Of a DNA stretch of 64,000 nucleotides, positions 1,558 through 61,301 are shown in pieces; position 1 is the stretch's first letter, and every line of letters starts with the position of its first letter. The stretch spans positions 92,366 to 156,365 of the forward strand of contig CAYOZJ010000001.1 in NCBI GenBank assembly GCA_964408485.1, read 5' to 3'. The notes beneath the pieces are model-generated. The model was given only the letters and a program-made list of their open reading frames with translations. It ran no database searches and had not been told where the DNA came from. A program made the translations under genes and the position numbers. The DNA comes from an uncultured Gammaproteobacteria bacterium (GTDB taxonomy: Bacteria; Patescibacteriota; Microgenomatia; Levybacterales; UBA12049).

Positions 1558-1659
1558 ACAGGTTCAATCATAGTATACCAAACGATGTGAAAAGCAAGGG
1601 GAAAAAGATAATAAAAAAGACTTTACATTTCTTTTGATGTATTATATACTATAAGTTAT

Positions 1660-2028
1660 ATGTCGGCTGATATACCCGTAAATTGTTTTAGCTACGCAGT
1701 TGAGGAGGCACTACGTGAGGGAAAGGAAGAATTTATTGCTCCGGATGATATCGTGTATGTTCTTGGCAATCGCTTTGTACTTGTACAAAGCATAAATGAA
1801 GCAACTACGGCAGTTGCTATTGAATATCCCGATACCGCAGGGGATCCAAGAAGAGTTAAAGCGATTCATGCCGCAGCGATTGTACCGGGAACAACACTTG
1901 TTACAGAAAGACAACACGCTGGAGCAGATGTATGCCCTCCCAAGCCAATTGCTGAAGCAATGAAAGGATATCGATTTATTCGATATTATAGACCACGAGA
2001 ACTTCCACCGGTTAGCCCAAGAAGATAA
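1660..2028 (+). CDS. Hypothetical protein, 122 aa. A Cys9...His72 arrangement hints at a papain/NlpC-like fold, unconfirmed.
   Basis: ORF preceded by a TTTACA-17-TATACT promoter 9 nt from the ATG. No confident family match by eye. Confidence 0.35.
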   Translation: MSADIPVNCFSYAVEEALREGKEEFIAPDDIVYVLGNRFVLVQSINEATTAVAIEYPDTAGDPRRVKAIHAAAIVPGTTLVTERQHAGADVCPPKPIAEAMKGYRFIRYYRPRELPPVSPRR

Positions 2029-7876: not shown

Positions 7877-8897
7877 AAAAAGGAATTCTTGAACGATTGC
7901 AAAAAGGGGTTGTTTTAGGGGCGGAAGGATATGTTTTTGAACTTGAATGCAGGGGGATATTAAAGCAGGTCCGTATGTACCTGAAGTGGTATTGGACGCA
8001 CCAAATGCAGTCAGAGAATTAAGCAATGAATTCCTGCGTGCTGGGGCAGAAGTAATTGTTGCACTTACCTACTACGCCAACAGAAATAAATTAAAAGATG
8101 TAGGACGGGAAGGAGATCTAGAGACATTAAATAGACAAGCAGTCAGAATTGCTAATCAGGTTGCCAAAAAAGGCAACGCGCTTGTTGCAGGAAATATCTG
8201 CAATACCTGGATGTACGATCCAAATGATAAAGAAAAAAGTGGCAAGGTTGTCAGGAAAATTTATCGCGAGCAACTACAATGGGCCATGCAGGAAGGAATA
8301 GATTTTGTTATCTCAGAAACAAATGATTACTTGGAAGAAGCGCTTATTGGACTACAGGAAATAAAACGCCTTGGTTTGCCTAGCATGGTTACCTTGGCTA
8401 CTATCCAAAAAGACAAAACAGCAGATGGATATGATTATATAGAAGCATGTAAAATTCTTGAAAAAAATGGAGCAGATATCGTTGGGCTTAACTGTGATAG
8501 AGGACCAGCAACCATGCTCCCCCTTTTGAAAAAAATTAGGAAAGCAGTAAAATGTTTTGTTGCTGCACAACCTGCACCATACCGAACAACACAGCAACAA
8601 TTTACTTTCGAATCACTCAAAAAAAATGGACAGCGCATTTTCCCTCTTGGACTCGATCCTTTTCTCCTTACTCGATTCGAAATGGCAGAATTTGCTAAAA
8701 AAGCAAAAGCAATCGGTATTAACTACATCGGCAGTTGCTGTGGAACAAACCCATCTATGACACGAGCCATGGCTGAGGCTTTGGGTCGAACGGTACCTGC
8801 AAGTAAATACTCGCCTGTTTTAGATTTACACCCTGTTATTGGCAATACTATTCAAACAGACAACAAAGAATTCATTGCAGATTGGAGAGATGACTAA
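7873..8897 (+). CDS. Betaine/homocysteine S-methyltransferase (BHMT-like, Pfam S-methyl_trans) with an apparent +1 frameshift at a G5 run (7951-7955)
   Basis: Frame A from the ATG at 7873 gives [28 protein letters not shown], which matches the BHMT N-terminus ([28 protein letters not shown]). Frame B from 7947 continues (Y/D)IKAGPYVPEVVLDAPNAVRE...QVAKKGNALVAGNICNT...NCDRG...IGSCCG, which also matches BHMT. The start overlaps the upstream gene as ATGA. Confidence 0.8.
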
Positions 8898-8898
8898 T

Positions 8899-11822: not shown

Positions 11823-11861
11823 AAGAGATCCTTCGACTCTGTTTCACTTCGCTCAGGATGA
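11823..11861. repeat. Short repeat of the family GAGATCCTTCG...GCTCAGGATGAC
   Basis: Related copies at 43975-44008, 48205-48232, 60555-60625 and 63003-63032, plus a hairpin variant at 58490-58545. Confidence 0.65.
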
Positions 11862-15352: not shown

Positions 15353-15473
15353 TTTGGAGATGCGGGGAGGAATTAAACCTCCGTCTTTTGTCTTGCGGAC
15401 AAACGCCTTAACACTTGACTACCGCATCACAAGCATTATACCAAGAATATAGCTATTTGCCCATAAAAGATTT

Positions 15474-20196: not shown

Positions 20197-22725
20197 TTAT
20201 TGGTCAGGAGTTGTTGTATTGTTAGTTTCATTTGTAAGATCGTACGCATTCTCCATACGCTTTGCAATGTGTTGTAAATTAAAAGGCAAACTATATAACC
20301 CTAAGTCATATATATCTTCAGCAGAAAGTTCTTGATTAGTTTCTAGCTTGGCATGTAAGCTCTGCACCCTCTTAAGAGCCTCTTCCCTATTTCCAAAAAG
20401 CTGTTCTATTCTTTCCTGCGGAAATGCATTCGGCACCTGTTGATTGAGATTGGTAAAATAATTGCCAATTTGCGGGACTGCATCGGGATACTGCTGATAC
20501 ATACTACTAACTTGTCCAAAAAGGTTTCTCACCAACCTTGCTTGATGAGTCGGATGAACAGTTGCTTCGTACACGTATGAAAAAAGTGTATTTGGCCCAT
20601 GATACGAAGACTCTAACTGATTGAAAGAAAATTGCGAAAGAGTATTATCTTCTCTCACCCGCGCAATAAAGGAATTTGGAATCATATTATACAATATACT
20701 AGAACGTGAGTCTGTTTCTCCAATAGTAAATAAACCTAATTCTCCACGATTGTCTGTTACTTCAAAATGCTCAATATCTTCGTTAAGAGAAATTGGACTC
20801 ATAAGCGACGGGTCAACAACAGCAAAGTCGCCCTCTCGGCGTGGTAACGTACCTTCAGAGACAGGTGTTTTAGTTGGATCATCCAATTGTTCAAAAAGAC
20901 TTGTAAGTGTTATGGATTTGGGTAATTCCACAACTTCTGGCATTGCTGCAGTAGCTTGCTCAACAACTTCTTGCTCGACAACTGGAGCTTCGACTTGCAT
21001 CGGAAGTATTATTTCCTCTCCCTTAAGCATTTCCATGACCTTTTTAATATCAACACTATGTCCTAAAAATTCAATTTGGCGAATTTGCTCGGGAGTAAGA
21101 GTAAGTGGATCTATTTTCAGAACTTCTTCCAATGCTTTTCTTCTTTCAGGCCATACAGCGAGAGTCTGCTCGGTGTTAACTGTATAAGGAAAAAGTTCGT
21201 CTACAACTACCTCTTCATTAATGGTTGGCTCAACGGAATCAATAGCAACAAGCCTATTAGGAGTAGATACATCATGAAGTATTGCTTGTTCTTTTTGAAT
21301 AAATGGAACAAGTTGTTCTTCAATAAAATCCTGCTCCTCTGAAGAGAGATTTTCTTGCAACCCCGCATATTCTCTATGAAACTGTTGTTGAAAGGCAATC
21401 TGTATTACCTGACCCTCTTCATTATTATTTCCGATCAGTTGTGGTTCTATAACTTGCAAATCATGAAATGCAAATTGCCTTAATGAGTCTGGTGTTTGAG
21501 CTTCAAAAAATTCTTGAAGAAGCTGTGGATTAACCTCATGAACACGCAGAATTGTCTCCCCTATTTGTTGATAAAGCATTGCTTGCTCTTCGGGGCTTTC
21601 TGCAGATGCAGCAGCTAAAGCAAATGTACCAGAGTCATTGTCGGTTAATGCTTCTGCATTTTTAAAACGCTTATTTTCTTCTAAAACACGGGCTGGTGGA
21701 AAAACTTCCTCATTGGGGAAGAGATGTTCTCCATCAGGTTCAAGAACAAAGAAATTTTTACGAAGCTGTAATTCTTTTAGTTGCTCAAATGTAAGATTTT
21801 GCGCAAAATCCACAGGAACACCTTTTTCTAGCCAATAAGGATTGCCAGGTTGTGCAGGTGGTTGAAGACGTGCTAAAACATCTTTCACATTATGAGGCTT
21901 CCCTTTTTCTAATGCCTGCGGTCTTTCAGCTTGTTCTCTATGCTTCTGCAACCATTCCCATGCAGTGCTCTCGTCTTCATTCAATGTTGCGTCAGGTGTG
22001 ACTTGCTCTAATGCTTGCTGATCATGTAATGCTCGGGTTTTTGCAACAAGGAGAGCACCCAGTGCATGCTGCGCTTTCTCACCTGCAACTTGCAAAAGAG
22101 GAGCAACTCTTTGAAGATTATCAATAATTTTTTCAGGATCTCCATTACTTTCTCGACTTGCTGCCTCGACCAGAGTATCAATAAGCTTTTTTGTATCATT
22201 TCCGCTTTTGTCTGTAGGACTTAGGTAAGTAGCATAGAAAATAAGCATACGAGCAAAATCATTGTCGATACTTTCCTGAGATAAGGGACGTTCGCCTCCT
22301 ATAGCCTGCAAGTCATTATTTATAGTGGCTATAAGAGAAATTACTTTTGGGTCCTGTAATTCTTGTTGTGTTTGGTCTATTGACCCATGGAGACCAACAG
22401 CCTGCAATATATGTATAACATCTATGTCTGTTTGCTTAGCAACCCACTGACGAATTCCAGGTTTTTCTCTATCTCCTGCAATCCATGTAATCAATTCTTG
22501 CCCAAAATTTAACTTTTTCCCCTGGGATTGTTGTTCTTGCCAATACCCATCCCTATCTGAAAGGGATCCTCCCTGAAAAGCAGCAAGTACATCTGCAGGA
22601 ATGTCTTGACCAAGTGGATGAGATCCTTCTTGCGTAAGAATTCTCTTACTCACGTTTACAGAGTATCGAGAAAGTAAAAGTCGACGTTTCTTCTCCTCTT
22701 CAGGAGTACGTCTTCGTTCAATCAT
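20197..22725 (-). CDS. Large acidic hypothetical protein, 842 aa, no TM and no recognisable domain
   Basis: Uninterrupted 2.5-kb ORF rich in E/Q/L. Co-oriented between ctpA and murB with two small P/G-rich ORFs upstream. Confidence 0.55.
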   Translation of the reverse strand: MIERRRTPEEEKKRRLLLSRYSVNVSKRILTQEGSHPLGQDIPADVLAAFQGGSLSDRDGYWQEQQSQGKKLNFGQELITWIAGDREKPGIRQWVAKQTDIDVIHILQAVGLHGSIDQTQQELQDPKVISLIATINNDLQAIGGERPLSQESIDNDFARMLIFYATYLSPTDKSGNDTKKLIDTLVEAASRESNGDPEKIIDNLQRVAPLLQVAGEKAQHALGALLVAKTRALHDQQALEQVTPDATLNEDESTAWEWLQKHREQAERPQALEKGKPHNVKDVLARLQPPAQPGNPYWLEKGVPVDFAQNLTFEQLKELQLRKNFFVLEPDGEHLFPNEEVFPPARVLEENKRFKNAEALTDNDSGTFALAAASAESPEEQAMLYQQIGETILRVHEVNPQLLQEFFEAQTPDSLRQFAFHDLQVIEPQLIGNNNEEGQVIQIAFQQQFHREYAGLQENLSSEEQDFIEEQLVPFIQKEQAILHDVSTPNRLVAIDSVEPTINEEVVVDELFPYTVNTEQTLAVWPERRKALEEVLKIDPLTLTPEQIRQIEFLGHSVDIKKVMEMLKGEEIILPMQVEAPVVEQEVVEQATAAMPEVVELPKSITLTSLFEQLDDPTKTPVSEGTLPRREGDFAVVDPSLMSPISLNEDIEHFEVTDNRGELGLFTIGETDSRSSILYNMIPNSFIARVREDNTLSQFSFNQLESSYHGPNTLFSYVYEATVHPTHQARLVRNLFGQVSSMYQQYPDAVPQIGNYFTNLNQQVPNAFPQERIEQLFGNREEALKRVQSLHAKLETNQELSAEDIYDLGLYSLPFNLQHIAKRMENAYDLTNETNNTTTPDQ

Positions 22726-22774: not shown

Positions 22775-23137
22775 CTATTTGCCCTGACCTTGAGGACCAC
22801 TTTGTCCCCCCGAACGATCCTGTAAACCAATTGGTCGCCCAGGCTGAGTTCCCGGCATGTCACTTAATTTTTTAAGTTTACTCGGAGGTACAGACGAAAG
22901 TGGTTGCGTCACTCTCTCTTCTTCATCAAGACCTATTCCGCCAATGCTTCCTCTTACTGTTGGGCGAACACCAGAATCACCAGGAAACTGAACGCGGTCA
23001 TATGGCCTTGTATCTCCTAGTTGATGTGTGACAATTGGAACACTTGGATTTGTCTCTGCTGAATCTGCTGGATTTGTACCTGTTTTATTCAATTGTTCAA
23101 TTCTATCAGGTCTAACAGAATCTCCATTGTCTATCAT
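22775..23137 (-). CDS. Pro/Gly-rich low-complexity hypothetical protein
   Basis: 120-aa ORF in operon-like arrangement. Confidence 0.35.
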   Translation of the reverse strand: MIDNGDSVRPDRIEQLNKTGTNPADSAETNPSVPIVTHQLGDTRPYDRVQFPGDSGVRPTVRGSIGGIGLDEEERVTQPLSSVPPSKLKKLSDMPGTQPGRPIGLQDRSGGQSGPQGQGK

Positions 23138-23180
23138 AATCTAACTTAATCAAATTCCTATAAGCTTTGCAAGAGGAAAC

Positions 23181-23498
23181 TTATTTACCCCCACCATTGG
23201 TTGGCTTTTCGCCACCAGAAGTATTAGAACCCGCAGATCCCTTATCTTTAAATTGAGGTCTAAGAATTTTTGCTTTTGTAAGAGGAGTTGTCGGCTTACT
23301 TTGTAACTGTTCTAGAAAATAGTCACCATCTGTATTAAGAGGAGCATTTCGAGGAGCGGTAAGATCTGGAGCGCCGGGGTTATTTGGTATTCCCTTTACG
23401 GAAGGCTTCTCTGGATACTCAGGATCAGGGGCACCTCCTTCAAAAAGATCAGTTGGGCGTTCAGGCATATTACCTTCATTCATATCACCAGCATACAA
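23181..23498 (-). CDS. Pro/Gly-rich low-complexity hypothetical protein
   Basis: 105-aa ORF in operon-like arrangement. Confidence 0.35.
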   Translation of the reverse strand: MYAGDMNEGNMPERPTDLFEGGAPDPEYPEKPSVKGIPNNPGAPDLTAPRNAPLNTDGDYFLEQLQSKPTTPLTKAKILRPQFKDKGSAGSNTSGGEKPTNGGGK

Positions 23499-23522
23499 AG
23501 AACTTTTTTAAGAGTCAAGACT

Positions 23523-25789: not shown

Positions 25790-26062
25790 CTAATTAGATC
25801 GTAATACCAACTGCCTTAGGATTTCATCATTTTCCATAAGTTTTCGCTCAAAATCGGAAGGCATTGTCTCTGCCTCAACTGTTAACTCATAAAAATGCCC
25901 TGAAAGCTCGTGCTTAATTTTATATGCTAAAGCCTTACTTCCTAAATCTTCCTCTTTTGTGATTTTTACGCCTTTCAGAAGGTCTTTTACCCATCCAACG
26001 GTTTTCTTGCGAGCATCATCAGACCCAGTTTTAACAACCAAAACAACTTGATAACTTCTCAT
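25790..26062 (-). CDS. rpsF: 30S ribosomal protein S6
   Basis: MRSYQVVLVV... with S6 fold signature. Sits in the conserved rpsF-ssb-rpsR order. Confidence 0.85.
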   Translation of the reverse strand: MRSYQVVLVVKTGSDDARKKTVGWVKDLLKGVKITKEEDLGSKALAYKIKHELSGHFYELTVEAETMPSDFERKLMENDEILRQLVLRSN

Positions 26063-26124
26063 GTTGTCCTATTTTACTCAATTTTGAGGCACAAAACAAG
26101 AGGCAGGTTACTAAAACCATTACC

Positions 26125-26153
26125 TTGACAGAAGAAAAACTTTCCATTACATT
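26125..26153 (+). promoter_or_regulatory. Sigma70 promoter TTGACA-17-TACATT, 6 nt upstream of the ATG at 26160
   Basis: Consensus -35 at 26125-26130. Effectively leaderless. Confidence 0.5.
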
Positions 26154-26159
26154 CTAGTC

Positions 26160-26444
26160 ATGGCAGCAGACAGAGAGACAGATATACAACAGGCGGTTGA
26201 GCAATGGCTTATTGAAACAAGACGTCTCAGAGCTCCAAAAGCTCCAGGGAAAACACACGAGGCTTGGTTAGCTCCAACAGAAACTGTAGTAGAGCCACCA
26301 CAAGCAACTCCCCCAGTTGGTGCTCCCTCACTTCACCCAGACAGATATTTTAGAGATTCCACCGGTCTAAGACATATAGACAATCCGTCTCCGCGAGGAT
26401 CAAGTCGGGTGAGAGGTCCCCGCGAACGTGGCAACAGAAGCTAA
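26160..26444 (+). CDS. Small basic/Pro-rich disordered hypothetical protein
   Basis: 94-aa ORF with its own consensus promoter. Composition is locally GC-richer. Confidence 0.35.
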   Translation: MAADRETDIQQAVEQWLIETRRLRAPKAPGKTHEAWLAPTETVVEPPQATPPVGAPSLHPDRYFRDSTGLRHIDNPSPRGSSRVRGPRERGNRS

Positions 26445-26451
26445 AAGTCTC

Positions 26452-26480
26452 TTGACATAACTACGCTGATTCTGTACAAA
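26452..26480 (+). promoter_or_regulatory. Sigma70 promoter TTGACA-17-TACAAA, 8 nt upstream of the ATG at 26489
   Basis: Consensus -35 at 26452-26457. Confidence 0.5.
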
Positions 26481-26488
26481 TAGTAGCT

Positions 26489-26791
26489 ATGGGAAAACAC
26501 AAGAAAGGTAGCCCTGCAACAAGTAAGCTCGCAAAAGACCATGCATACTCCGATACAAGGGATGCTCCTCGTCTTCACTCTAATAGACTAGGCAAACGTC
26601 CTCCAGAAACCGACATGTCTCAGGAGGGAGAAAGCAATGACTCAACAAAAAGAGAAACACCAGGTTTGCGATTTGTACAAGCACCACCAATAACAAGAAG
26701 ACCATCGTCTATTAGACCAAAGCCTGAAACAGAAAGAAGTGCGTACAAAGATATGGTAGATGAGTGGAATGGGAATAAGGAAGAAAAATAA
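26489..26791 (+). CDS. Small basic disordered hypothetical protein
   Basis: 100-aa ORF with its own promoter. Confidence 0.35.
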   Translation: MGKHKKGSPATSKLAKDHAYSDTRDAPRLHSNRLGKRPPETDMSQEGESNDSTKRETPGLRFVQAPPITRRPSSIRPKPETERSAYKDMVDEWNGNKEEK

Positions 26792-26796
26792 AAAAA

Positions 26797-27942
26797 TTAG
26801 CTCCCTATTTTAAATTCAACTACGTCGCCGTCTTTCATTATGTAATCTTTTCCTTCGAGCCGTGCTTTTCCTTTTTCTCTAGACCCCTTCCAACCATTTT
26901 GATCAACAAAGTCCTCATACCCAACAACTTCTGCTTTAATAAATTTCTTTATAAAATCTGTATGAATCTCCCCTGCTGCTTCTGGCGCACTACTTCCTTT
27001 TCGTATTGTCCAAGCCCGCACTTCTTTTTCCCCACAAGTCAAAAAACTTATTAGACCTAACTGCGTATAGGCTTTTTGTATCAAACGCTCTAAGCCCGAC
27101 GCGCTAAGCCCTAAGCCGGCAAGGTATTCTTTTTGCTCATCATCCGAAAGACCTGCTAATTCAGATTCAATTTGCGCACAGATGACAACAATATTGTCTA
27201 CCCCAATGTCATTCCCGCGCAGGCGGGAATCTAGGGAACTGGATCCCTGATCGGAGTCAGGGATGACAGCAGAAAGTAATGAACGATACTCTCTCGTTAC
27301 TTTTTCAATTCCTTCAGGATTATATTGTGATTCACTCACGTTTAGGACAACTAACTCAGGCTTTGAGCTTAGCAGGAATAGCTCTCTTATTGCTTCCCTT
27401 TCTTCCTCGCTAAGATCCATTGCCCTCACCGGTACCCCTTGTTCTAATAGCTTTTGGACTTTCTCATGATTTGCGTTTTTTACTTTGCGATTTACATTCT
27501 GCAGAGTCTGCAGGTCAGCAAGCATAAGCTCAGTATTAATGACTTCATAGTCAGATTTTGGATCTACAGCACCTTCCTTAATAACATTCTCGTCTTCAAA
27601 CGCTCTGACAACATGCGCAACAACCGACACTTCTTTAATGTGCCCTAGGAATTTATTGCCAAGTCCTGCTCCCTCTGATGCACCTTTCACAAGTCCTGCA
27701 ATATCGACAAATTCAACAGTTGCAGGCTTGAGTGGTGGCAATTCACTCATCTTTTCTTCTTCTTTGGTAATCTCAGCAAGCTTGTTAAGTCGCGGATCTG
27801 GCACGGCAACAATCCCTACATTTGGCTCAATAGTTGCAAAAGGATAATTTGCAGCTAACGCTTGCTGCTTTTTAAGAAGCGCATTAAACAATGTAGATTT
27901 TCCTACATTCGGAAGACCGACAATCCCAACACTCAAGTTCAT
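26797..27942 (-). CDS. ychF: Ribosome-binding ATPase YchF (Obg-family GTPase)
   Basis: G1 motif GIVGLPNVGKSTLFNAL. TGS domain C-terminus (DFIKKFIKAEVVGYEDF...VVEFK). Carries an in-frame 60-bp repeat insert. Confidence 0.92.
   Translation of the reverse strand: MNLSVGIVGLPNVGKSTLFNALLKKQQALAANYPFATIEPNVGIVAVPDPRLNKLAEITKEEEKMSELPPLKPATVEFVDIAGLVKGASEGAGLGNKFLGHIKEVSVVAHVVRAFEDENVIKEGAVDPKSDYEVINTELMLADLQTLQNVNRKVKNANHEKVQKLLEQGVPVRAMDLSEEEREAIRELFLLSSKPELVVLNVSESQYNPEGIEKVTREYRSLLSAVIPDSDQGSSSLDSRLRGNDIGVDNIVVICAQIESELAGLSDDEQKEYLAGLGLSASGLERLIQKAYTQLGLISFLTCGEKEVRAWTIRKGSSAPEAAGEIHTDFIKKFIKAEVVGYEDFVDQNGWKGSREKGKARLEGKDYIMKDGDVVEFKIGS
27208..27267. repeat. In-frame 60-bp hairpin-rich insert within ychF (TIR GTCATTCCC...GGGATGAC)
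   Basis: Encodes DSDQGSSSLDSRLRGNDIGV on the minus strand. Contains hairpins CCCGCGCAGGCGGG and CCCTGATCGGAGTCAGGG. The termini are inverted repeats related to the other GATGAC-ended elements. Confidence 0.7.
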
Positions 27943-28733: not shown

Positions 28734-30560
28734 CTAGCGCACAGGGCTTCCTGGATTAAACGAGATTGTTGGAGTAGCTGTTGGTTTTGTTGTCGGTGTT
28801 GGCGTAATAGTAGGAATAGATGTAGGAATGGGAGTTATGGTAGCAGTAACAGTTGAAACAGATGTTGGTACAATAACTGTTGGTGTTGCAGAAAGTGTTT
28901 GAGTAATTTGTGCAACAGCTGCACTAGCAGAAACATTAGAAAGCCTCGTTATAGAATATGGAGGTAATTGTAGAAGAGTTGGTGGCACTTGACCTGAAAT
29001 ACTTGTTGTCAAAAATGAACTATCTCCTGTTGAAAGAGCTGAGGGAGTTGCGCTTAATTGATTATAAAATTGGGCATTCAGATTTGGAGACAATGAAATT
29101 GTATACGCTGTTGATGAAAGATTGAAAATAATTGCTTGCTTGTATTGTCCACCAGAGAAAAGATACCCAACAAGAGATGGAAAACTGCCAGCGCGTCCAG
29201 AAAGCTGTGGATTGGATGAAAACTGAAGAGAAGCAAATGTTTTTTGTCCATACATCCCTCTCATTACTTCAGTCAAAACAAGTCCTGCAGAACTTAATCC
29301 ATCTTGAATAGTTGTTGGAGCATTTGTACAACCGCTTCGATGGGTATATGCGTCTGTTGTCTTAAAAATGAGTGAAAAATTTGCATTTGCCCATAACGTA
29401 TAGTTAGTAGCTAAATTAATTCTACTGTCAGAAAGCATGCTTGTCAGGAATATTCCATCAAAAAGGCCACTTCCCCAACTTCCATCAATAGCATTATACG
29501 GATCGGAGTAGTTGTATTCTGTAAACCAAAACTTTCCATTTCCCCATGTTTGTAATTGATTCAAAAATGGTTTAATTCCATTTTTCTCATAAAGATATGC
29601 TTGACTCAATAAATCTTTTACACCCTGATCTGTCTGAAGATGTGCATATTCTGATTGCTGCTTCTGGCAATATGTTGTGCCTGTTACTGCCATATTCGGC
29701 GCGGGATATGGATGAATCGTGAGATAATAATTTTTTCCTTTGAGTGCTGTAATAAGCTGGCTATTCCATGTACTATTCGTCCCAAAAACTGCATTTACTC
29801 CCACCTGAACTGTACCATCCCATGCATGAATTCCGTCAATCCATCGCTTGGCAATATTTCCATACGAAGTACCACTTGGAAAAATGCATGTTTCATCTGG
29901 ACTAGAGTTTGGTTGATTTTTATATACCTCATTCCCAAGTTCTACATATTTTACCGATATTCCCATTTGTCTTGCAGCTTTCAGGAAATTTAGTTGATCG
30001 GTTAACACACTTTGCCATTTGCTATCCCATACTTCATTGCATTTCAGATTTATTCCATTGGTTGGTGTAATAAGATTTAATACAAAGATAGGAGTCCCAT
30101 GTGTTTTATCAACCATAGTCTTAAGATCGGTGAGTGTTTGGGTGTAATGAGTGAGATAATATGGATACCCATTTACATACGTCGAACTATATTTTGGTCC
30201 ATGAAGATTCCAGAAAGTTCCATCGTGCCAATTATAATAATTAGCCACTCCCGATGGAAAACGAAAAACAGTTGGTAAGAGATTTCCCAGATTTTGTCCA
30301 AGTGTCCCACCAAGACGTGAGGGATCAATACCATCTATATCTACTCCTGCAAAAGGACCATGAAGCGAAGATTGACTACCAATGCTTACAGAAATTGTAC
30401 CCGTTGATGCTCCTAGTACATTTGACTTAGTCAATATAAGCACTCCAATTAGTACTATGGCCATAAGAAGTGAAAAAGAAATACCAATATATTTAAGATT
30501 AAAAAATGATTTATGCTTCTTATGCCTTACAACCTTTTTAACAACTTTCTTTTTCTTCAC
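28734..30560 (-). CDS. Membrane-anchored exported putative glycoside hydrolase (clan GH-A-like TIM barrel) with a Thr/Pro-rich C-terminal tail
   Basis: Basic N-terminus plus TM helix. VELGNEVY resembles the NEP acid/base motif of clan A glycosidases. C-terminal TPT/IPT repeats. Confidence 0.4.
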   Translation of the reverse strand: MKKKKVVKKVVRHKKHKSFFNLKYIGISFSLLMAIVLIGVLILTKSNVLGASTGTISVSIGSQSSLHGPFAGVDIDGIDPSRLGGTLGQNLGNLLPTVFRFPSGVANYYNWHDGTFWNLHGPKYSSTYVNGYPYYLTHYTQTLTDLKTMVDKTHGTPIFVLNLITPTNGINLKCNEVWDSKWQSVLTDQLNFLKAARQMGISVKYVELGNEVYKNQPNSSPDETCIFPSGTSYGNIAKRWIDGIHAWDGTVQVGVNAVFGTNSTWNSQLITALKGKNYYLTIHPYPAPNMAVTGTTYCQKQQSEYAHLQTDQGVKDLLSQAYLYEKNGIKPFLNQLQTWGNGKFWFTEYNYSDPYNAIDGSWGSGLFDGIFLTSMLSDSRINLATNYTLWANANFSLIFKTTDAYTHRSGCTNAPTTIQDGLSSAGLVLTEVMRGMYGQKTFASLQFSSNPQLSGRAGSFPSLVGYLFSGGQYKQAIIFNLSSTAYTISLSPNLNAQFYNQLSATPSALSTGDSSFLTTSISGQVPPTLLQLPPYSITRLSNVSASAAVAQITQTLSATPTVIVPTSVSTVTATITPIPTSIPTITPTPTTKPTATPTISFNPGSPVR

Positions 30561-46401: not shown

Positions 46402-47022
46402 TTAGTATCCGGTTGGAGCACCATATTGTTGCATCATTTGCTTTACTTGCTCTTGAGACATACCTGTTGGAGCACCGGACGGCATTGCTTTCATCATTTC
46501 AGACATATCGGTAAATTTTACGTCAGTTGGAGGTACAAAAAGCTCATCATCAACTACTGCGACCTTACAGGAATCCTTGAATTTTTCAAGCATAGAGAGT
46601 GCATTTGAGCCTTGATTTTGCGCAGATTCCGTTGACTTCACTGCCGAACTCGTTGGCATAGGAGTAACCGTAATGCTGGGAATAGTCATAACACTTCCTG
46701 TTTTACTGCTTACCTGCCAAAAATAGATTTTTTTGTCCTTCATTATCATGCTTTGTGCATCAGGCTTTTGTGGGTTGGTATCTACGCGTACTGCTCCTGA
46801 CTTTATGTAGGCTGTTGTTGCTGTCCCATTGTCTGCAGTAAATTGACACTGCAAAGAAAGATTGCGTGTTAACGCATCTTGAATAGTATTAAAAACTCCC
46901 CCGTGCTCTTCTCCGGCCATACTCGGTGATTTCACACTATGTGCAAATTTATAATATGCAAGACTACCTGCAGCAATGAGGAGTAAAACAATAACCAGAA
47001 GTCCCCACATCCACTTTTTCAT
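46402..47022 (-). CDS. Secreted hypothetical protein
   Basis: Signal peptide MKKWMWGLLVIVLLLIAAGSLA. Confidence 0.45.
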   Translation of the reverse strand: MKKWMWGLLVIVLLLIAAGSLAYYKFAHSVKSPSMAGEEHGGVFNTIQDALTRNLSLQCQFTADNGTATTAYIKSGAVRVDTNPQKPDAQSMIMKDKKIYFWQVSSKTGSVMTIPSITVTPMPTSSAVKSTESAQNQGSNALSMLEKFKDSCKVAVVDDELFVPPTDVKFTDMSEMMKAMPSGAPTGMSQEQVKQMMQQYGAPTGY

Positions 47023-48641: not shown

Positions 48642-49484
48642 TTATTTCCTTATTCGCACATCCTGAACATTCCCCGTAAAAGTCTCTTTTCTTTGCACTT
48701 CTAATCGTTTTCTCTCTCCTCTTCCTCGTAATCGATCCAACGCATTTTGTATGCCAAAATTCTTAATTCCTCGAAACGCTGCAAGAAAATGATGTGATGA
48801 TATACTTTCTTCCATATACGCGCGAGATGCTGCGCTTTTTCTATCTTTTCCGCCAACACCTGAAGACATAACTTGATTGTATCCTTCTCGAAGCTGAGAA
48901 AACTGGGGTTTTTCTTCCTGTGTAATTGGTTGTTGATCTCTCGGCACTTGTTGTAACATTCTTTGTGATTGAAAACGCTCCATTTTTGCAAGTCCTTCTG
49001 CCGAACTTCCTTCTTCAGAAAGCGTAATTGCCTGATTGAATGCGGTAATAGCATCTGCTAAAAAAATCGGATTACCGGTAAGAGAAAATATCGCTATATT
49101 CAGCTTTCCTTCATCGCGTTTCATTTCTGGGGGCAAGTGGTAGGGATCTTCTCTGTCAAGCGTTTGCAGCTGACTATCGTAACGTATTCTTTCCTGAAAA
49201 GGATCATATTTGTTACGGATTACCTCAGCGGCTCTCGCAAAGTTTTCTGCAGCTTTATTACCATTCTCTTGCCTATTTCCTTGACTTGTCTCACTAACTG
49301 TCTCATCTCTCCATAATTTTGCTTTATCTCGCAGTATTGTCGGGTCTTCTGCTGCAATGGAACTTATTGCACCATGCTCCTTGGCTAGACGAATTGCCTC
49401 TGAATAATCTCCTGTTTTATTTCCCTCAAGTCGCGCCTCTTCTGCCTTTTGCAACTCTTCTGATATATCAGATTGTTCGTTCAT
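48642..49484 (-). CDS. Hypothetical protein, 280 aa
   Basis: ORF only. Confidence 0.4.
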   Translation of the reverse strand: MNEQSDISEELQKAEEARLEGNKTGDYSEAIRLAKEHGAISSIAAEDPTILRDKAKLWRDETVSETSQGNRQENGNKAAENFARAAEVIRNKYDPFQERIRYDSQLQTLDREDPYHLPPEMKRDEGKLNIAIFSLTGNPIFLADAITAFNQAITLSEEGSSAEGLAKMERFQSQRMLQQVPRDQQPITQEEKPQFSQLREGYNQVMSSGVGGKDRKSAASRAYMEESISSHHFLAAFRGIKNFGIQNALDRLRGRGERKRLEVQRKETFTGNVQDVRIRK

Positions 49485-49849: not shown

Positions 49850-50155
49850 ATATATTGTTCGAATGCAGTGAGAACTAAAACTTCTCGCTTTGCTCGAAGA
49901 ATAAATATTTTACTTTTGTACAGATTGGCTTTTCTCCAACTGAACCGGAGTCGGGGTTGGAGTAATTGAAGATAAAACAGTCAGATATTTTTGATTAAAA
50001 AGCATACCTGCATAAAACGCAACTCCTAAGAAAGCCAAAACAAGAAGAAGGGCTAGCATTTTAGAAAACGCAGTAACTTTGGTAAGTGATTTAGGAAGTT
50101 TGACCATACATCTACTTTCCTACAAAAACCAGAAAAAATCAAGTCGATTTCGTGC

Positions 50156-50184
50156 TTGACAGATAATAAAGGGCTCTCTATAAT
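50156..50184 (+). promoter_or_regulatory. Sigma70 promoter TTGACA-17-TATAAT, 7 nt upstream of the ATG at 50192
   Basis: Perfect consensus hexamers. The ORF-track TTG start is actually the -35 box. Confidence 0.6.
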
Positions 50185-50191
50185 TTTGGCC

Positions 50192-50485
50192 ATGAGACAC
50201 ACTTTAGAAGTAAGCGAGCCAGGAGGAGCAAGAATCTGGACAAATGAAGGCACACCAATCACTTATGGTGCAGAAACTCGCGACGGAGTGGTCGGAGACG
50301 AAGTCCCCCTAAGAACCGTTGGAGTTGCTTCTGCAAGAATCCATGGAAGCTTAGAGTATAAAAGGATTGCTCGGCCACATTTTGGTGAAGAACCTACAAG
50401 AACACGAAATAGAGCTGGTCATTATGTTACTCAAACGCTGGCAGATGCAATCGTTGCAGCTCATAATACAAGAAAAAACTCATAA
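50192..50485 (+). CDS. Small basic hypothetical protein, paralogue A
   Basis: MRHTLEVSEPGG...TYGAETRDGVV...VGVASARIHGSL, homologous to the downstream gene. Confidence 0.4.
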   Translation: MRHTLEVSEPGGARIWTNEGTPITYGAETRDGVVGDEVPLRTVGVASARIHGSLEYKRIARPHFGEEPTRTRNRAGHYVTQTLADAIVAAHNTRKNS

Positions 50486-50515
50486 CACTTCTAAAAAAAT
50501 CATCCAATTTCGTGC

Positions 50516-50545
50516 TTGACAAGTAATATAGGTCTAATTTATAAT
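50516..50545 (+). promoter_or_regulatory. Duplicated sigma70 promoter TTGACA-18-TATAAT, 6 nt upstream of the ATG at 50552
   Basis: The upstream context ATTTCGTGCTTGACA is shared with the promoter at 50156. Confidence 0.6.
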
Positions 50546-50551
50546 TTGACT

Positions 50552-50788
50552 ATGGCTGACAGAATTCGCTCAAATTCAGGTTCAGAAATTATAAGAGACA
50601 CTGATTCTTACACGTATGGTGCAGTCTCAGAAAGGGTAGTTATTTTTGGTTTTTCACAAAGGGATGTAGCAAGTGCTCGTGCGAGAGTTAGAAAAGAGCT
50701 AGATGAAGATAAGGCTATTGATGAGCAGGCACAAATTCTCGCTAGACGCGGGTTACGTATGATGGAAGAAAGAAATCAATGGAATTAG
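50552..50788 (+). CDS. Small basic hypothetical protein, paralogue B
   Basis: MADRIRSNSGSE...TYGAVSERVVI...DVASARARVRKEL aligns with paralogue A. Confidence 0.4.
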   Translation: MADRIRSNSGSEIIRDTDSYTYGAVSERVVIFGFSQRDVASARARVRKELDEDKAIDEQAQILARRGLRMMEERNQWN

Positions 50789-50790
50789 TT

Positions 50791-51126
50791 TCATAACCCC
50801 AAATTTGAATAGCTATTCATCTGATTTTGTACTCCCTGCAAAAATGCTCCCATTGTCCACAATGTTAGGATAACTGCCAGAATAGTCAAAACTAAAGCTA
50901 TCCATCCAATTCTTTTTGCTTTTGAATCACTGGATCTAAGATATTTCCATGTCCAGATAAGTCCAAGTGGCGGAAGAAAAAAACTAACAAAGTAAATCCA
51001 GACCTGCTTCCCTGTCCCAATAGTTGGCGTGTGATTTGTCAATTTTGCACCACAATGACTACAAAATGTATCATCAGGAGCAGTTATGCTTCCGCAATTT
51101 GGACAGATAAATTGAGAATTATCCAT
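50791..51126 (-). CDS. Zinc-ribbon domain membrane protein
   Basis: CPNCG...CSHCG zinc ribbon followed by two TM helices. Confidence 0.5.
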   Translation of the reverse strand: MDNSQFICPNCGSITAPDDTFCSHCGAKLTNHTPTIGTGKQVWIYFVSFFLPPLGLIWTWKYLRSSDSKAKRIGWIALVLTILAVILTLWTMGAFLQGVQNQMNSYSNLGL

Positions 51127-52728: not shown

Positions 52729-53316
52729 TTACCCTATTCCTCCTCCTTTATTTTCTGTTGCGCGCTGTGCTTTTAGCAAATTATCATCTTGTTGTTTTTT
52801 CTCTTCTTTTTTCTGCATATCTTGGAATTTTTCCTCCTGCTTATCTTGCTCTTTTTCGTTATTTTCAACGACAGTCTTTCTGTCTCGTCCTTCTGCTTTT
52901 GCTAAAAAGTCCTGATAATACTCTTGGTGAAGACTCCTAAGTTCTTGCTCGATTTTCTGAATCTTTTCTATATCCTCTGGCGACTTACTCCCAGGATCTG
53001 CAACCAATTGTTGACCTGCTTTTGTAAGCATTTGCGGAGCTTGACCTTGTCCTTGTTGCTTTTGCTTACCACCAGCTGCATCCGGACTAAATAAGTCTCC
53101 TCCTTGTAGCGTATTTGCCCCGATTGAATCGGGGTTAAATGATCCATTTTGGGGCTGCTGCTTAGGAGGAGTAAAACTACCACTTATCCCGCCGCTTCCT
53201 TTTACTTGACCTGCTACAGATTTAGTAAAGTCAGCAATTGTCCCACCAATTGCCTGTTTTGTATTTGCTGTTAAATCCTCTAATGCTTCACCAAATCCAT
53301 TTGATCCATCTGACAT
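52729..53316 (-). CDS. Gln/Lys/Glu-rich low-complexity hypothetical protein. Contains a palindrome variant.
   Basis: Encodes NPDSIGAN from CCCCGATTCAATCGGGG (53118-53134). Confidence 0.35.
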   Translation of the reverse strand: MSDGSNGFGEALEDLTANTKQAIGGTIADFTKSVAGQVKGSGGISGSFTPPKQQPQNGSFNPDSIGANTLQGGDLFSPDAAGGKQKQQGQGQAPQMLTKAGQQLVADPGSKSPEDIEKIQKIEQELRSLHQEYYQDFLAKAEGRDRKTVVENNEKEQDKQEEKFQDMQKKEEKKQQDDNLLKAQRATENKGGGIG

Positions 53317-54358: not shown

Positions 54359-54994
54359 TTAAGAATATAGCTTGTGCTCTATTATATACTTTTCTACACT
54401 TTCAGGCACAAGTCCTGTGATTGATTGACGATCTTTGATTAGATCCCGAATCCGTGTTGCACTATCTTCGAGTGGCACATAATTTGGATCTGTAATAACC
54501 GTTGCATTGCTGGGTGCATTTTCTACAGAAGAGCCTTTGCGAGCAACGACAAGAAAATGTACTTCTTTAAGAAGCTCTTCCCAGTGTGTCCACTTGTGAA
54601 ATACATTCATATTGTCTGACCCCACAACAAAAACAAACTCATGCTCTGGGTATTTCTGACGTAATCTTCGAACAACGGCTATTGTTTCTGTCGCTCCTCC
54701 TATTTCTACTGGTGTCATATCCACCTTCAAAGTGTCATTGCGAGGAGCTTGCGACGCGGCAATCTCTTCATTTGTATTAGATTGCTTCGCTTTGCTCGCA
54801 ATGACGGAAGAAATTGCCAACTCAGCCATTGCTTTTCTGTCTTTTGCAGATGCAACAATTGGCCGCCATTGATGCTGATTCTCTACGCTAAGCCATACCT
54901 CATCTGCCAAACCAATTTTAAGAACCTCTTTTGCAACAGCCAAGTGACCATTATGGATAGGGTCAAATCGTCCACCAAAAATCGCGACCTTCAT
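54359..54994 (-). CDS. nadD: Nicotinate-nucleotide adenylyltransferase, carrying an in-frame repeat insert
   Basis: MKVAIFGGRFDPIHNGH (the HxGH nucleotidyltransferase motif). Insert IASKAKQSNTNEEIAASQAPRND. Start trimmed to MKVAIF. Confidence 0.85.
   Translation of the reverse strand: MKVAIFGGRFDPIHNGHLAVAKEVLKIGLADEVWLSVENQHQWRPIVASAKDRKAMAELAISSVIASKAKQSNTNEEIAASQAPRNDTLKVDMTPVEIGGATETIAVVRRLRQKYPEHEFVFVVGSDNMNVFHKWTHWEELLKEVHFLVVARKGSSVENAPSNATVITDPNYVPLEDSATRIRDLIKDRQSITGLVPESVEKYIIEHKLYS
54734..54805. repeat. 72-bp palindromic element in-frame within nadD
   Basis: Same TIRs and core as 53946-54017. Confidence 0.85.
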
Positions 54995-55220: not shown

Positions 55221-56168
55221 TTATCTAATAAATCCAGGTGAAGTTGGTTTTCTTCTTGATCTTCCTACACCATTTCCACCATTATCTGCTACAGGTTCAT
55301 CTGTACCAACCATATGATCATACAGACCCAAAACTCTTACAGTCTGCTCTACAATATTTGCCTCTCGAGGCTGTGTATTTCTTCCATTAGATACCCTTGG
55401 ATCTCGAGGAGTTAAAGGTTGAGATGCATCTCGTTGTGCTGGCTGTCTATCCCCATTTCTTGCTGCTCTTACAACCTCTTCCACTGTCTGCCTACTAGGT
55501 GCACCTGTAAACTGTTCTACTGCCGATCCCTTCACTCTTTCATGGGTATTTACTATTTGATGGGCAAGGGCTGCTGTTGCTTTATTCGCAAGATATGTTT
55601 TTGCAAATCTCCATGGATGTACCTTACCCTTTGCATCAACTGCAGCATCTGCTGCTGCTCGCAAGCTGGATTCTGCTTCAATTTGCGCACGCTCTGCATC
55701 AGACAAGGCTGCTTGTTCTGCGTGCATTCGTTGTCCAGCAACGTCTGCAACAGCTCTTGGATGAATACCATGTCGGAAAATAGCTCCCTGTGTGGCGTCA
55801 CTGTGTGCACCAAGTGTTTTAGCCCATCCCTCCACTTGTTCTGCTCGCTCTGCAACTTCTCCTGCTACATCAAATAGCATTTCTTCTACCCCTTCTACTC
55901 CTCTATCACGAACTGTTCTTACTAATCCACCAACTAATGCTCCAAAGAAATTCTCTCTTTGTGGAACATATGACTCTGGTGCTTGTACAGGTTCTACTGC
56001 TCGTTGCTGTGGTTGTGGCTGTCTTGGTGCTCTTCCACCTCTTACTGAAGGCATATCACTTGCTTCAACACCAGGATATACTGGATCTTGTTGTCTTTCT
56101 GGTCTTGCAAGTGGAACTCGTGGTGCTCCCTTTGCTCTACTTCTATCTCTTTGTTCTGCTTTTCCCAT
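55221..56168 (-). CDS. Ala/Arg/Glu/Gln-rich hypothetical protein, 315 aa, compositionally atypical for this genome
   Basis: Long ORF driven by a perfect consensus promoter; the antisense plus-strand ORFs are Cys-rich junk. Confidence 0.5.
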   Translation of the reverse strand: MGKAEQRDRSRAKGAPRVPLARPERQQDPVYPGVEASDMPSVRGGRAPRQPQPQQRAVEPVQAPESYVPQRENFFGALVGGLVRTVRDRGVEGVEEMLFDVAGEVAERAEQVEGWAKTLGAHSDATQGAIFRHGIHPRAVADVAGQRMHAEQAALSDAERAQIEAESSLRAAADAAVDAKGKVHPWRFAKTYLANKATAALAHQIVNTHERVKGSAVEQFTGAPSRQTVEEVVRAARNGDRQPAQRDASQPLTPRDPRVSNGRNTQPREANIVEQTVRVLGLYDHMVGTDEPVADNGGNGVGRSRRKPTSPGFIR

Positions 56169-56180
56169 ATTATTGTTGTC

Positions 56181-56209
56181 ATTATAAATATACTATATTA
56201 AGTTGTCAA
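56181..56209 (-). promoter_or_regulatory. Perfect sigma70 promoter TTGACA-17-TATAAT on the minus strand, 12 nt upstream of the ATG at 56168
   Basis: -35 is the reverse complement of 56204-56209; -10 is the reverse complement of 56181-56186. Confidence 0.6.
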
Positions 56210-56350: not shown

Positions 56351-56379
56351 TTGACAAGACCGTACTACTGCTATTATTA
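56351..56379 (+). promoter_or_regulatory. Sigma70 promoter TTGACA-17-TTATTA, ~9 nt upstream of the ATG at 56389. Divergent partner of the minus-strand promoter.
   Basis: Consensus -35 with an AT-rich -10. Confidence 0.5.
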
Positions 56380-56388
56380 TGCGGGTAT

Positions 56389-56805
56389 ATGTCAATCGCA
56401 GTAAAACCAGGTACATCGGCTCGAATAAGAAGAGGGAGAGGAATCACTATTCCTACTGATATTAGTATTTCAGTTGAAGGTATTAAAACAACTGCGGTAG
56501 AACCATCTACTCAGACTGCTTCAGAACCTCGAAAAGGAAGAGCTGCAAAGCGCCTTGATTTAGCTTCTTTGGATCCGCAGATCTCAGTGGGACTTGTTGG
56601 TCATAGAGAAACATATCCAGCAGGTGTATTAAATCGTAGAAAAGCTACTGATAGTCCTGTGGCAAGGGAACCTCGCCAAAACGAAGAACCTCGTGTAGAC
56701 AAGGTAGTAACACCAAAAAGAAAACATGGAACACCAGGTACAGATTTGGGTGATGTAAAACTTCCTGATTGGGTTTTGAGAGAAGCTCATTTGCCACGTT
56801 CTTAA
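56389..56805 (+). CDS. Small basic disordered hypothetical protein, 138 aa
   Basis: Arg/Lys/Pro/Thr-rich ORF with its own promoter. Confidence 0.4.
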   Translation: MSIAVKPGTSARIRRGRGITIPTDISISVEGIKTTAVEPSTQTASEPRKGRAAKRLDLASLDPQISVGLVGHRETYPAGVLNRRKATDSPVAREPRQNEEPRVDKVVTPKRKHGTPGTDLGDVKLPDWVLREAHLPRS

Positions 56806-60453: not shown

Positions 60454-60682
60454 AGTAATTTGTCATTCTGGGTTTTTCATTTTGTCATCCCGGACTTGAT
60501 CCGGGATCCACTCCTTTTTCTGGATTCCTGCTTTCGCAGGAATGACGCTTAATGAGATCCTTCACTCGACTCAGTATTTGCTTCACCGAAACGGCACACT
60601 TCGTTCAGGATGACAGAGACGAAGCATGATTTAGGATACTACAAAAGGAGGGGTATTAAAAGATTGCAAAGTGTATCGAAAA
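60454..60682. repeat. Cluster of at least four hairpin/MITE-like repeat units upstream of dnaX
   Basis: TTGTCATTCTGGG; TTGTCATCCCGGACTTGATCCGGGAT hairpin; ATTCCTGCTTTCGCAGGAATGAC hairpin; GAGATCCTTC...TTCAGGATGACAGAGACGAAG hairpin. Confidence 0.65.
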
Positions 60683-60994
60683 TTAGGTTCTCGGGGAATT
60701 AGGTCTTTGTCTTGAGCCAGAAGTTCGTCTTTTTGGTCTTGCTGCATCATATCCCCTAGCAATAGCCGCATCTACAGCAGCAACATCAAATGGTTGACCA
60801 GCATCTTGATATGCGGCCTCTGCTGCATATCGTGCTTCCCAAAGGCGCTTTGAACTTTCAACTGCTTCCTGACCCGCTCTCCGAGCAGCAGGCGTATTTC
60901 TTATCCCAACCTTGTTAAATCTTCTATGCCATCTTTCTGAAGCTTCCGCAGCTTCCGTGAGTCTTTCTAATGCGCCTTCAACCATAGAATGCAC
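60683..60994 (-). CDS. Ala/Arg-rich small hypothetical protein, 103 aa
   Basis: ORF in an operon-like array downstream of ybeY. Confidence 0.35.
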   Translation of the reverse strand: MHSMVEGALERLTEAAEASERWHRRFNKVGIRNTPAARRAGQEAVESSKRLWEARYAAEAAYQDAGQPFDVAAVDAAIARGYDAARPKRRTSGSRQRPNSPRT

Positions 60995-61039
60995 TATAAC
61001 AGATTTTTATGGGATGTCAAGAAAAAAAGCGTAACGGAG

Positions 61040-61255
61040 TTAATGAAGAGTAGCATTTCTCGCCCGAGCACGTGCCTGATGTACTCTACTATGTGCAACT
61101 TCGACGGGAACACCTTCTCTTTCCACGTTCGCAAATGCACTATGAAATGTTATCTTTGCTAAAGAATGACCAGGTCCTTTCGGTTTCCAGCCTACTGCTG
61201 CATTTTCTAATTTTCCCAATGCCTCTTCCTGTTCGGGACTTAGTTCAAAATTCAT
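61040..61255 (-). CDS. Small hypothetical protein, 71 aa
   Basis: ORF only. Confidence 0.3.
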   Translation of the reverse strand: MNFELSPEQEEALGKLENAAVGWKPKGPGHSLAKITFHSAFANVEREGVPVEVAHSRVHQARARARNATLH

Positions 61256-61301
61256 ACCGGATTATTATATAACTCTTACATGAGGTTTCAAGAGGAATCT
61301 T

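Follow-up and report, generated by a model that had tools for sequence, protein, structure and literature searches.

We analysed a 64,000-nucleotide window of contig CAYOZJ010000001.1 (GTDB lineage Patescibacteriota; Levybacterales), concentrating on two small open reading frames, ORF1 and ORF2, that lie on the plus strand in the 734-bp gap between rpsF (25790–26062, minus strand) and ychF (26797–27942, minus strand). ORF2 and ychF are convergent, with stop codons 5 nt apart. The window has a GC content of 38.3% (intergenic GC 0.34) and carries dnaB, rpmE-prfA, rpsF-ssb-rpsR, ychF, hisS, cysS and dnaX-ybaB-recR among other genes. Together with about nine similar ORFs in the window, ORF1 and ORF2 form a class whose members are 71–138 amino acids (aa) long, with one of 315 aa (Table 1). 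The original prediction had described such a class, each gene driven by its own promoter close to the ATG; we add four members to its list, all on the minus strand (23181–23483, 22775–23137, 60683–60985 and 61040–61255). Across the ORF1/ORF2 region, the window agrees at 100% identity with two independent assemblies built from other sequencing runs, in which the genes are called as well. Judged from the sequence, ORF1, ORF2 and their look-alikes are probably genuine, native, lineage-restricted protein-coding genes expressed from leaderless mRNAs.

The promoters stand very close to the start codons. The window contains 7 instances of the pattern TTGACA-N16-19-TANNNT-N5-9-ATG, compared to 0.47 ± 0.62 expected and a maximum of 3 in 200 first-order Markov simulations. 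The −10 box ends 6 or 8 nt before the ATG of ORF1 and ORF2, respectively, and 6 to 8 nt before that of six other members. As had been claimed, all eight starts originally named (26160, 26489, 50192, 50552, 56389, 55221, 1660 and rpmE) have a near-consensus promoter close to the ATG and no 4-mer resembling a Shine-Dalgarno (SD) sequence; none was found upstream of any class member. The 5′ ends of the messages are predicted to be unstructured, with roughly the first 27 nt of the ORF1 message unpaired.

We compared this layout with that of the genome as a whole by scanning upstream of a crude set of 86 window genes, calling a start leaderless-type when a TANNNT hexamer ended 5–9 nt before the ATG. 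Such a hexamer precedes 39 of the 86 genes, compared to 9.9% of other ATGs, and its distance peaks sharply at 6–7 nt. The carriers include ychF, rpsF, rpmE, genes of the murB region and many enzymes. A pyrimidine occupies position −1 at 92% of leaderless-type starts and at 42% of control ATGs (p=8e-11); together with A at +1, this gives the Y(−1)R(+1) preference that should appear if the A of the ATG is the first base transcribed. The predicted transcription start site (TSS) of ORF1 falls on its ATG, with C at −1 and A at +1 in keeping with this preference.

The comparison extends to related genomes. A −10 box at the ATG was found for 44% of genes in the window, 42% in Levybacteria-like loci and 36% in other loci of the candidate phyla radiation (CPR), compared to 6% in non-CPR loci (Staphylococcus, Clostridia and others), which served as the control of the method. 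SD-like motifs follow the opposite pattern (11%, 11%, 11% and 54%, respectively). Within the window, SD-like 4-mers occur at about 11–14% of genes, mostly internal operon genes, and AGGAG-type SD sequences precede the internal operon genes rpsR (24928), hisS (9500) and 32335. The organism seems to use both modes of initiation, leaderless and SD-dependent. As read from these sequences, the promoter-at-ATG layout is the lineage default, with putatively leaderless mRNAs, and no mark of the class. The claim of a special promoter design consequently fails for the layout, which is also common in related CPR, and survives for the −35 box, considered below.

Leaderless expression here is an already known kind of gene start and is ordinary for this genome. 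In the GeneMarkS-2 classification, group C genomes have a Pribnow box 6–8 nt from the start in 25–50% of operons (PMC6028130). The group C leaderless bacteria (Mycobacterium tuberculosis, Deinococcus deserti and Streptomyces) share with the window the Pribnow spacing, starts that lack an SD sequence, SD sequences kept at internal genes and a similar share of such genes. Unlike these examples, the window belongs to a low-GC lineage of CPR/Patescibacteria (Levybacteria), its class genes add a perfect −35 TTGACA, and its leaderless starts are predicted from sequence. A search of one literature library, which is no proof of novelty, returned no report tying leaderless initiation to CPR/Patescibacteria. 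If leaderless initiation is the default in Levybacteria and other Microgenomates, gene finders tuned to SD sequences would misplace starts and miss small CPR genes, and the default would also matter for the way in which translation is initiated by the reduced ribosome of CPR.

The ychF product has been reported to regulate how leaderless mRNAs are translated (Landwehr et al. 2021, as cited in PMC12641178). The adjacency of its gene to leaderless ORF2 in a leaderless lineage is noteworthy and probably a coincidence.

Only a perfect −35 box sets the class promoters apart. Among 42 leaderless-type genes, perfect TTGACA boxes precede 7 of the 26 without a Pfam domain and none of the 16 with one (Fisher p=0.03), and a Mann-Whitney U rank test of the −35 match between the two groups gives p=0.007. 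TTGACA is also present at ORF2 and at 46402. A complete match to the 12-base consensus occurs at three promoters (50192, 50552 and 55221), and in related loci perfect promoters likewise lie mostly on small accessory genes. Because these are the best promoters in the window, the class is probably strongly or tightly regulated. Orphan disordered proteins behind the strongest promoters of the region may rank among the most abundant proteins of these uncultivated cells, while being invisible to annotation by homology.

Codon statistics argue that the ORFs are protein-coding. As predicted, the class genes are locally GC-richer (0.405–0.505, compared to the window mean of 0.383), and the excess is distributed unevenly over codon positions: in all candidates GC1 and GC2 lie at 0.43–0.68 and GC3 at 0.17–0.31 (chi-square p from 0.0045 to 6e-38). 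The GC1/GC2/GC3 values are 0.63/0.58/0.31 for ORF1 (p=8.6e-6), 0.50/0.50/0.29 for ORF2 (p=0.002) and 0.68/0.51/0.17 for 55221 (p=6e-38), and GC2 exceeds GC3 throughout (one-tailed Fisher p from 0.009 to 3e-20). The same kind of skew has been used to pick out selected small ORFs (sORFs) in M. tuberculosis (PMC9094748). In simulations, the probability that a frame stays open from the promoter-proximal ATG is 0.03 to <0.0002 (ORF1 0.03, ORF2 0.006), and simulated open ORFs of equal local composition show no GC3 dip. When the class is pooled and read in frame, its relative synonymous codon usage (RSCU) and that of Pfam-bearing genes correlate at r=0.91; reading the two remaining sense frames gives −0.34 and 0.18. 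By these statistics, the proposed reading frames are the correct ones. Since the additional GC falls at codon positions 1 and 2, with low GC3 and native RSCU, it derives from amino-acid composition rather than from foreign DNA. The amino-acid composition is held against the AT bias of the genome.

That composition is distinctive, although not entirely as predicted. Arg makes up 10.8% of class residues and 3.7% of those in Pfam-bearing genes (2.9-fold), and Pro 8.3% and 3.9% (2.1-fold). The enrichment of Arg and Pro was therefore borne out and that of Thr was not (6.1% compared to 6.0%). Ala and Gly are also elevated. Hydrophobic residues are scarce, with Ile, Leu and Phe depleted along with Lys, and Cys is absent (0%). 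The description of the proteins as basic holds in part, as net charges range from −1 to +9. ORF1 has 13.8% Arg, 12.8% Pro, 6.4% Gly, a grand average of hydropathy (GRAVY) of −1.05 and a net charge of +3; ORF2 has 10% Arg, 11% Lys, 10% Pro, 6.0% Gly, a GRAVY of −1.57 and a net charge of +5. Several members end in basic, RG-rich tails, including ORF1 (...RVRGPRERGNRS) and its positional counterparts in the related genomes L003 (...RPARGRGY) and L004 (...NDRRGY).

Predictions of disorder agree for most of the class. A charge-hydropathy plot assigns 14 of 40 genes lacking a Pfam domain to the disordered zone, compared to 2 of 46 with one. ORF1, ORF2 and most other members lie inside, in line with the disorder originally proposed; ORF 1660 (GRAVY −0.19) and 61040 lie outside and 55221 is borderline. 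Single-sequence AlphaFold2 models of ORF1 (predicted local distance difference test (pLDDT) 65.6, predicted template modelling score (pTM) 0.22) place a helix at residues 3–23 and a hairpin at 62–73, and those of ORF2 (pLDDT 67, pTM 0.20) a single C-terminal helix at 81–99, with the rest as coil in both. A fold search from these models was dropped, their pTM of 0.20–0.22 being too poor.

Some larger genes without a Pfam domain are also present, at 20197–22725 (842 aa), 28734–30464 (576 aa), 48642–49484 (280 aa) and 52729–53316 (195 aa), all on the minus strand. The 280-aa and 195-aa proteins are strongly hydrophilic (GRAVY −0.93 and −1.11, respectively) and may be larger representatives of the disordered class.

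The class ORFs are orphans. In a word-indexed search of 5.8e9 proteins, ORF1, ORF2 and 55221 matched only themselves. A full phmmer search of ORF1 against 1.84e9 representatives returned itself and three weak multi-stretch matches to larger proteins, of which the two inspected are repeat proteins. The absence of a recognizable fold or family was upheld, with no match to Pfam, NCBIfam (E≤0.1), PHROG, PADLOC or the PDB. The curated families of small basic ribosomal and nucleoid-associated proteins likewise gave no profile match in Pfam or NCBIfam, and a functional analogy to them is possible. No matches were obtained when the small ORFs were searched by tblastn against 160 related loci. We also considered whether the members form a single protein family and rejected this (all-against-all Smith-Waterman comparison with shuffles, z≤3.3 over 153 pairs). 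As far as these comparisons of sequence go, the class is compositional and not a protein family.

Positions, promoters and composition are nevertheless retained in sister genomes whose sequences have diverged. The nearest YchF-bearing genomes are those of Candidatus Levybacteria and other Patescibacteria metagenome-assembled genomes (MAGs); the top two, L003 and L004, have 77–78% YchF identity, and a metagenome scan yielded no relative above this value (L083 is the same as L004). Both genomes carry one small ORF in the rpsF-ychF slot (L003 7182–7430, 82 aa; L004 7098–7334, 78 aa; both minus strand). These ORFs share the strand and promoter type of ORF1, have GRAVY values of −1.5 and −1.7, and contain 13–17% Arg and 12–14% Pro; the rpsF-side promoter block can be aligned across L003 and L004. 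ORF2 has no counterpart in the slot. A second slot, after the S41 peptidase gene (window 23181–23483), is syntenic in both genomes with its −35 and −10 boxes conserved. In a three-way alignment its Pro/Gly-rich proteins reach 22–31% identity, and they have in common the motifs P.PE and, at the C terminus, NT[SP]GG. Composition vectors correlate at 0.71–0.86 within a slot and at 0.43–0.70 between slots, at a YchF/RpsF identity of only 77–80%.

Duplication may add members. The genes 50192 and 50552 (region 50136–50791) have in common a promoter block of 15 identical nt (ATTTCGTGCTTGACA), in-phase patches that encode TYGA and VASAR, and little else. BLASTP detects no similarity between the two proteins, and the duplication is visible in the DNA alignment only; that alignment shows the pair to be diverged tandem duplicates, so that tandem duplication gave rise to at least one pair of the class. 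They show how extra copies such as ORF2 can arise. Under a strict filter (small, GRAVY<−0.8, raised GC, GC3 lowest), the qualifying share is 7% of the genes in the window and 12% of those in L003/L004; in 40 more distant CPR loci, the filter retains only SSB. L004 also carries an extra 121-aa hydrophilic, GC-raised, leaderless ORF (8533–8898, plus strand), one segment of which resembles a helix-turn-helix by eye.

The class shares with other orphan genes for disordered proteins a narrow clade, fast sequence turnover and tandem duplication. Unlike typical orphans, its members stand behind the strongest promoters of the region and keep their composition against the AT bias, which argues for an established function over recent birth. 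Proteins that keep their place, promoter and composition while their sequence changes would offer a clean case for the study of disordered-protein evolution.

We propose the following mechanism. A sigma-70-type promoter would set the start of transcription on the A of the ATG or 1–2 nt upstream. The message would carry neither a 5′ untranslated region nor an SD sequence, and ribosomes would start directly at the 5′-terminal AUG. This leaderless start would be the usual one for the first genes of operons in this genome and its relatives, with SD sequences kept at internal genes. The products would be abundant and mostly disordered polycations that work through their bulk properties. Across species their sequences shift almost beyond recognition, with slot, promoter, length and composition persisting, which leads us to infer selection on the physico-chemical properties of the proteins in bulk. 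Judged by composition, the role of the proteins is most likely that of abundant, polycationic, disordered binders of RNA, DNA or ribosomes, or of hydrophilin-like protectants; the basic RG-rich tails of several members make us favour the former, the binding role.

A wider proposal is possible, and we offer it tentatively. A narrow, probably soil-dwelling clade of Levybacteria would keep leaderless genes for Arg/Pro-rich disordered proteins under top promoters (about 7–12% of the genes sampled), selected for composition and position, and these might be undescribed abundant bulk proteins, such as polycations coating RNA or ribosomes, condensate scaffolds or desiccation protectants, in ultra-small cells. 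The CPR Microgenomates as a whole would be a large lineage, unremarked to date, that depends on leaderless translation.

Several observations weigh against the interpretation of these ORFs as leaderless genes for conserved disordered proteins. The −35 enrichment is based on small numbers, the −10 box of ORF2 (TACAAA) does not have the conserved final T, and the 12-nt gap at 55221 means that its message probably has a short leader of about 5 nt. The slot-1 ORFs cannot be aligned, so that orthology there has to be judged by position, promoter and composition only; in L084, a third relative, the rpsF-ychF gap holds purD-purN; and no two class members are significantly alike. Single-sequence AlphaFold2 and the charge-hydropathy plot are weak predictors of disorder, and the proposed function is drawn only from composition, RG-rich basic tails and promoter strength. 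A terminator search detected none after ORF1 or ORF2, and the ORF2 transcript may read through, antisense to the 3′ end of ychF.

As the main functional alternative, the proteins could be hydrophilins, or similar to late embryogenesis abundant (LEA) proteins, protecting soil-dwelling ultra-small cells against desiccation or osmotic stress rather than binding nucleic acids. Hydrophilins, such as yeast Hsp12 and Stf2 and LEA-like proteins, are likewise small, very hydrophilic, predicted to be disordered and defined by composition rather than homology. Taking the published limits (Gly>6%, GRAVY<−1; PMC4190154), ORF1 (6.4%, −1.05), 23181, 52729 and the sister ORFs L003_7430 and L003_9980 qualify; the closest genomes are labelled 'SMAG', which we take to mean soil MAGs, and the promoters are strong. 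However, ORF2 (6.0% Gly), 50192, 50552, 55221, 56389, 60683, 61040 and 1660 fall outside, most members lying on the wrong side of the GRAVY limit, and the class is rich in Arg and Pro, with basic RG tails, rather than in Gly, Gln, Asn or Glu. We therefore do not file the class under hydrophilins, and consider it rather unlikely that protection is its role.

Alternatively, any transcript that begins with AUG might be translated in a leaderless organism, and the ORFs might be proto-genes: young, largely functionless by-products of strong promoters, with a quick turnover. The pervasive translation described for M. tuberculosis is a precedent: a 5′ AUG reportedly suffices for a leaderless message to be translated, and selection does not act on the majority of the novel sORFs there (PMC9094748). 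Complete orphan status, the unalignable slot-1 counterparts and the predicted disorder are all consistent with such an origin, and the M. tuberculosis leaderless sORFs are likewise short unknown ORFs at the 5′ ends of transcripts. Unlike those sORFs, all our candidates are skewed as strongly as annotated genes, are longer and occupy conserved slots. Their GC1 of about 0.6 and GC2 of about 0.5 stand against an intergenic GC of 0.34 and an AT mutational bias. The codon-position skew, the RSCU correlation (r=0.91), frames of 71–315 codons that stay open at P of 0.03 or less, and the persistence of ORF presence, length and composition in the slots despite the 77–80% YchF/RpsF identity all oppose it as well. 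Young promoter by-products are thus an unlikely account, one that retains some weight because selection on protein sequence is seen only indirectly.

A further reading, in which the ORFs are incidental and the promoters serve non-coding or antisense RNAs (such as a read-through antisense of the ychF 3′ end), seems to us very improbable. The missing terminator between ORF2 and the convergent ychF and the lack of protein conservation would suit such RNAs. Yet GC varies with a three-base periodicity, codon usage is native in frame, and every site has a long ORF whose ATG coincides exactly with the predicted TSS. No Rfam match was obtained at the gathering score or at E≤1, and there is no excess folding energy (z from −0.19 to +1.12 compared to shuffled controls). 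The original prediction had named, as grounds for its own refutation, ORFs unconserved in sister genomes together with promoters that drive antisense or non-coding RNAs; half of this applies, as the sequences are unconserved in the sister genomes, but slot, promoter, length and composition are kept and codon statistics favour coding.

The remaining suggestion, that these are remnants of mobile DNA or horizontally acquired GC-rich islands, is scarcely credible: a local GC of 0.42–0.50 compared to 0.38 and orphan genes that are often paired would fit it, but only codon positions 1 and 2 carry the excess of GC, GC3 (0.17–0.31) is as low as or lower than the housekeeping value of 0.29, RSCU is native, there are no flanking repeats or adjoining mobility genes, the neighbours are housekeeping genes, neither similarity to phages or plasmids nor a PHROG or PADLOC match was found, and both slots are syntenic in L003 and L004.

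Table 1. Predicted promoters and ORFs of the class and its neighbours in the window. Promoters are given as −35 box/spacer (nt)/−10 box/distance to ATG (nt).
Feature	Position	Strand	Promoter	Remarks
ORF1 promoter	26125–26153	+	TTGACA (26125–26130)/17/TACATT (26148–26153)/6	ATG 26160
ORF1	26160–26444	+		94 aa; orphan, Arg/Pro-rich, mostly disordered by prediction
ORF2 promoter	26452–26480	+	TTGACA (26452–26457)/17/TACAAA (26475–26480)/8	Weak −10 box; ATG 26489
ORF2	26489–26791	+		100 aa; orphan, hydrophilic, disordered by prediction
rpsF promoter	26071–26099	−	TTGTTT/17/TAAAAT/8	ATG 26062; divergent, back to back with ORF1 promoter; block kept in L003 and L004
Promoter and 97-aa ORF (50192–50485)	50156–50485	+	TTGACA/17/TATAAT/7	Diverged tandem duplicate of 50552
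Promoter and 78-aa ORF (50552–50788)	50516–50788	+	TTGACA/18/TATAAT/6	
Promoter and 315-aa ORF (55221–56168)	55221–56209	−	TTGACA (56204–56209)/17/TATAAT (56181–56186)/12	Orphan
Promoter and 138-aa ORF (56389–56805)	56351–56805	+	TTGACA/18/TATTAT/8	Net charge +9; divergent from 55221
Promoter and 100-aa ORF (60683–60985)	60683–61020	−	TTGACA/16/TATAGT/7	Arg 16%
Promoter and 71-aa ORF (61040–61255)	61040–61291	−	TTGAAA/16/TATAAT/8	
Promoter and 100-aa ORF (23181–23483)	within 22775–23518	−	TTGACT/17/TATGCT/6	Pro/Gly-rich
120-aa ORF	22775–23137	−		Class member beside 23181–23483
Promoter and 122-aa ORF (1660–2028)	1622–2028	+	TTTACA/17/TATACT/9	Promoter type and GC pattern of the class
rpmE promoter	ATG 13064		TTGCCT/17/TATACT/7	

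Other sequence elements were observed in the window. The sole RNA gene detected is a tRNA-Cys (GCA) at 15355–15428 on the minus strand. The 9-mer CATAATTCA occurs twice upstream of prfA (13426 and 13447, plus strand) and twice upstream of cysS (52676 and 52662, minus strand). Neither gene has a leaderless −10 box, and the 9-mer, which has no Rfam match, may be a shared leader or operator. Short GC-rich hairpins that resemble repetitive extragenic palindromic (REP) elements and end in ...GG(G/A)ATGACA occur at 11856, 42716, 43997, 48225 and 60608 (plus strand), at 60491 (minus strand) and within ychF (27195–27262). The two elements inside ychF are in frame and add 'SDQGSSSLDSRLRGNDIGVDN', which is missing from the L004 YchF. 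NadD (54359–54994) contains 'EEIAASQAPRND', a peptide that also forms an insert in the L003 YchF.

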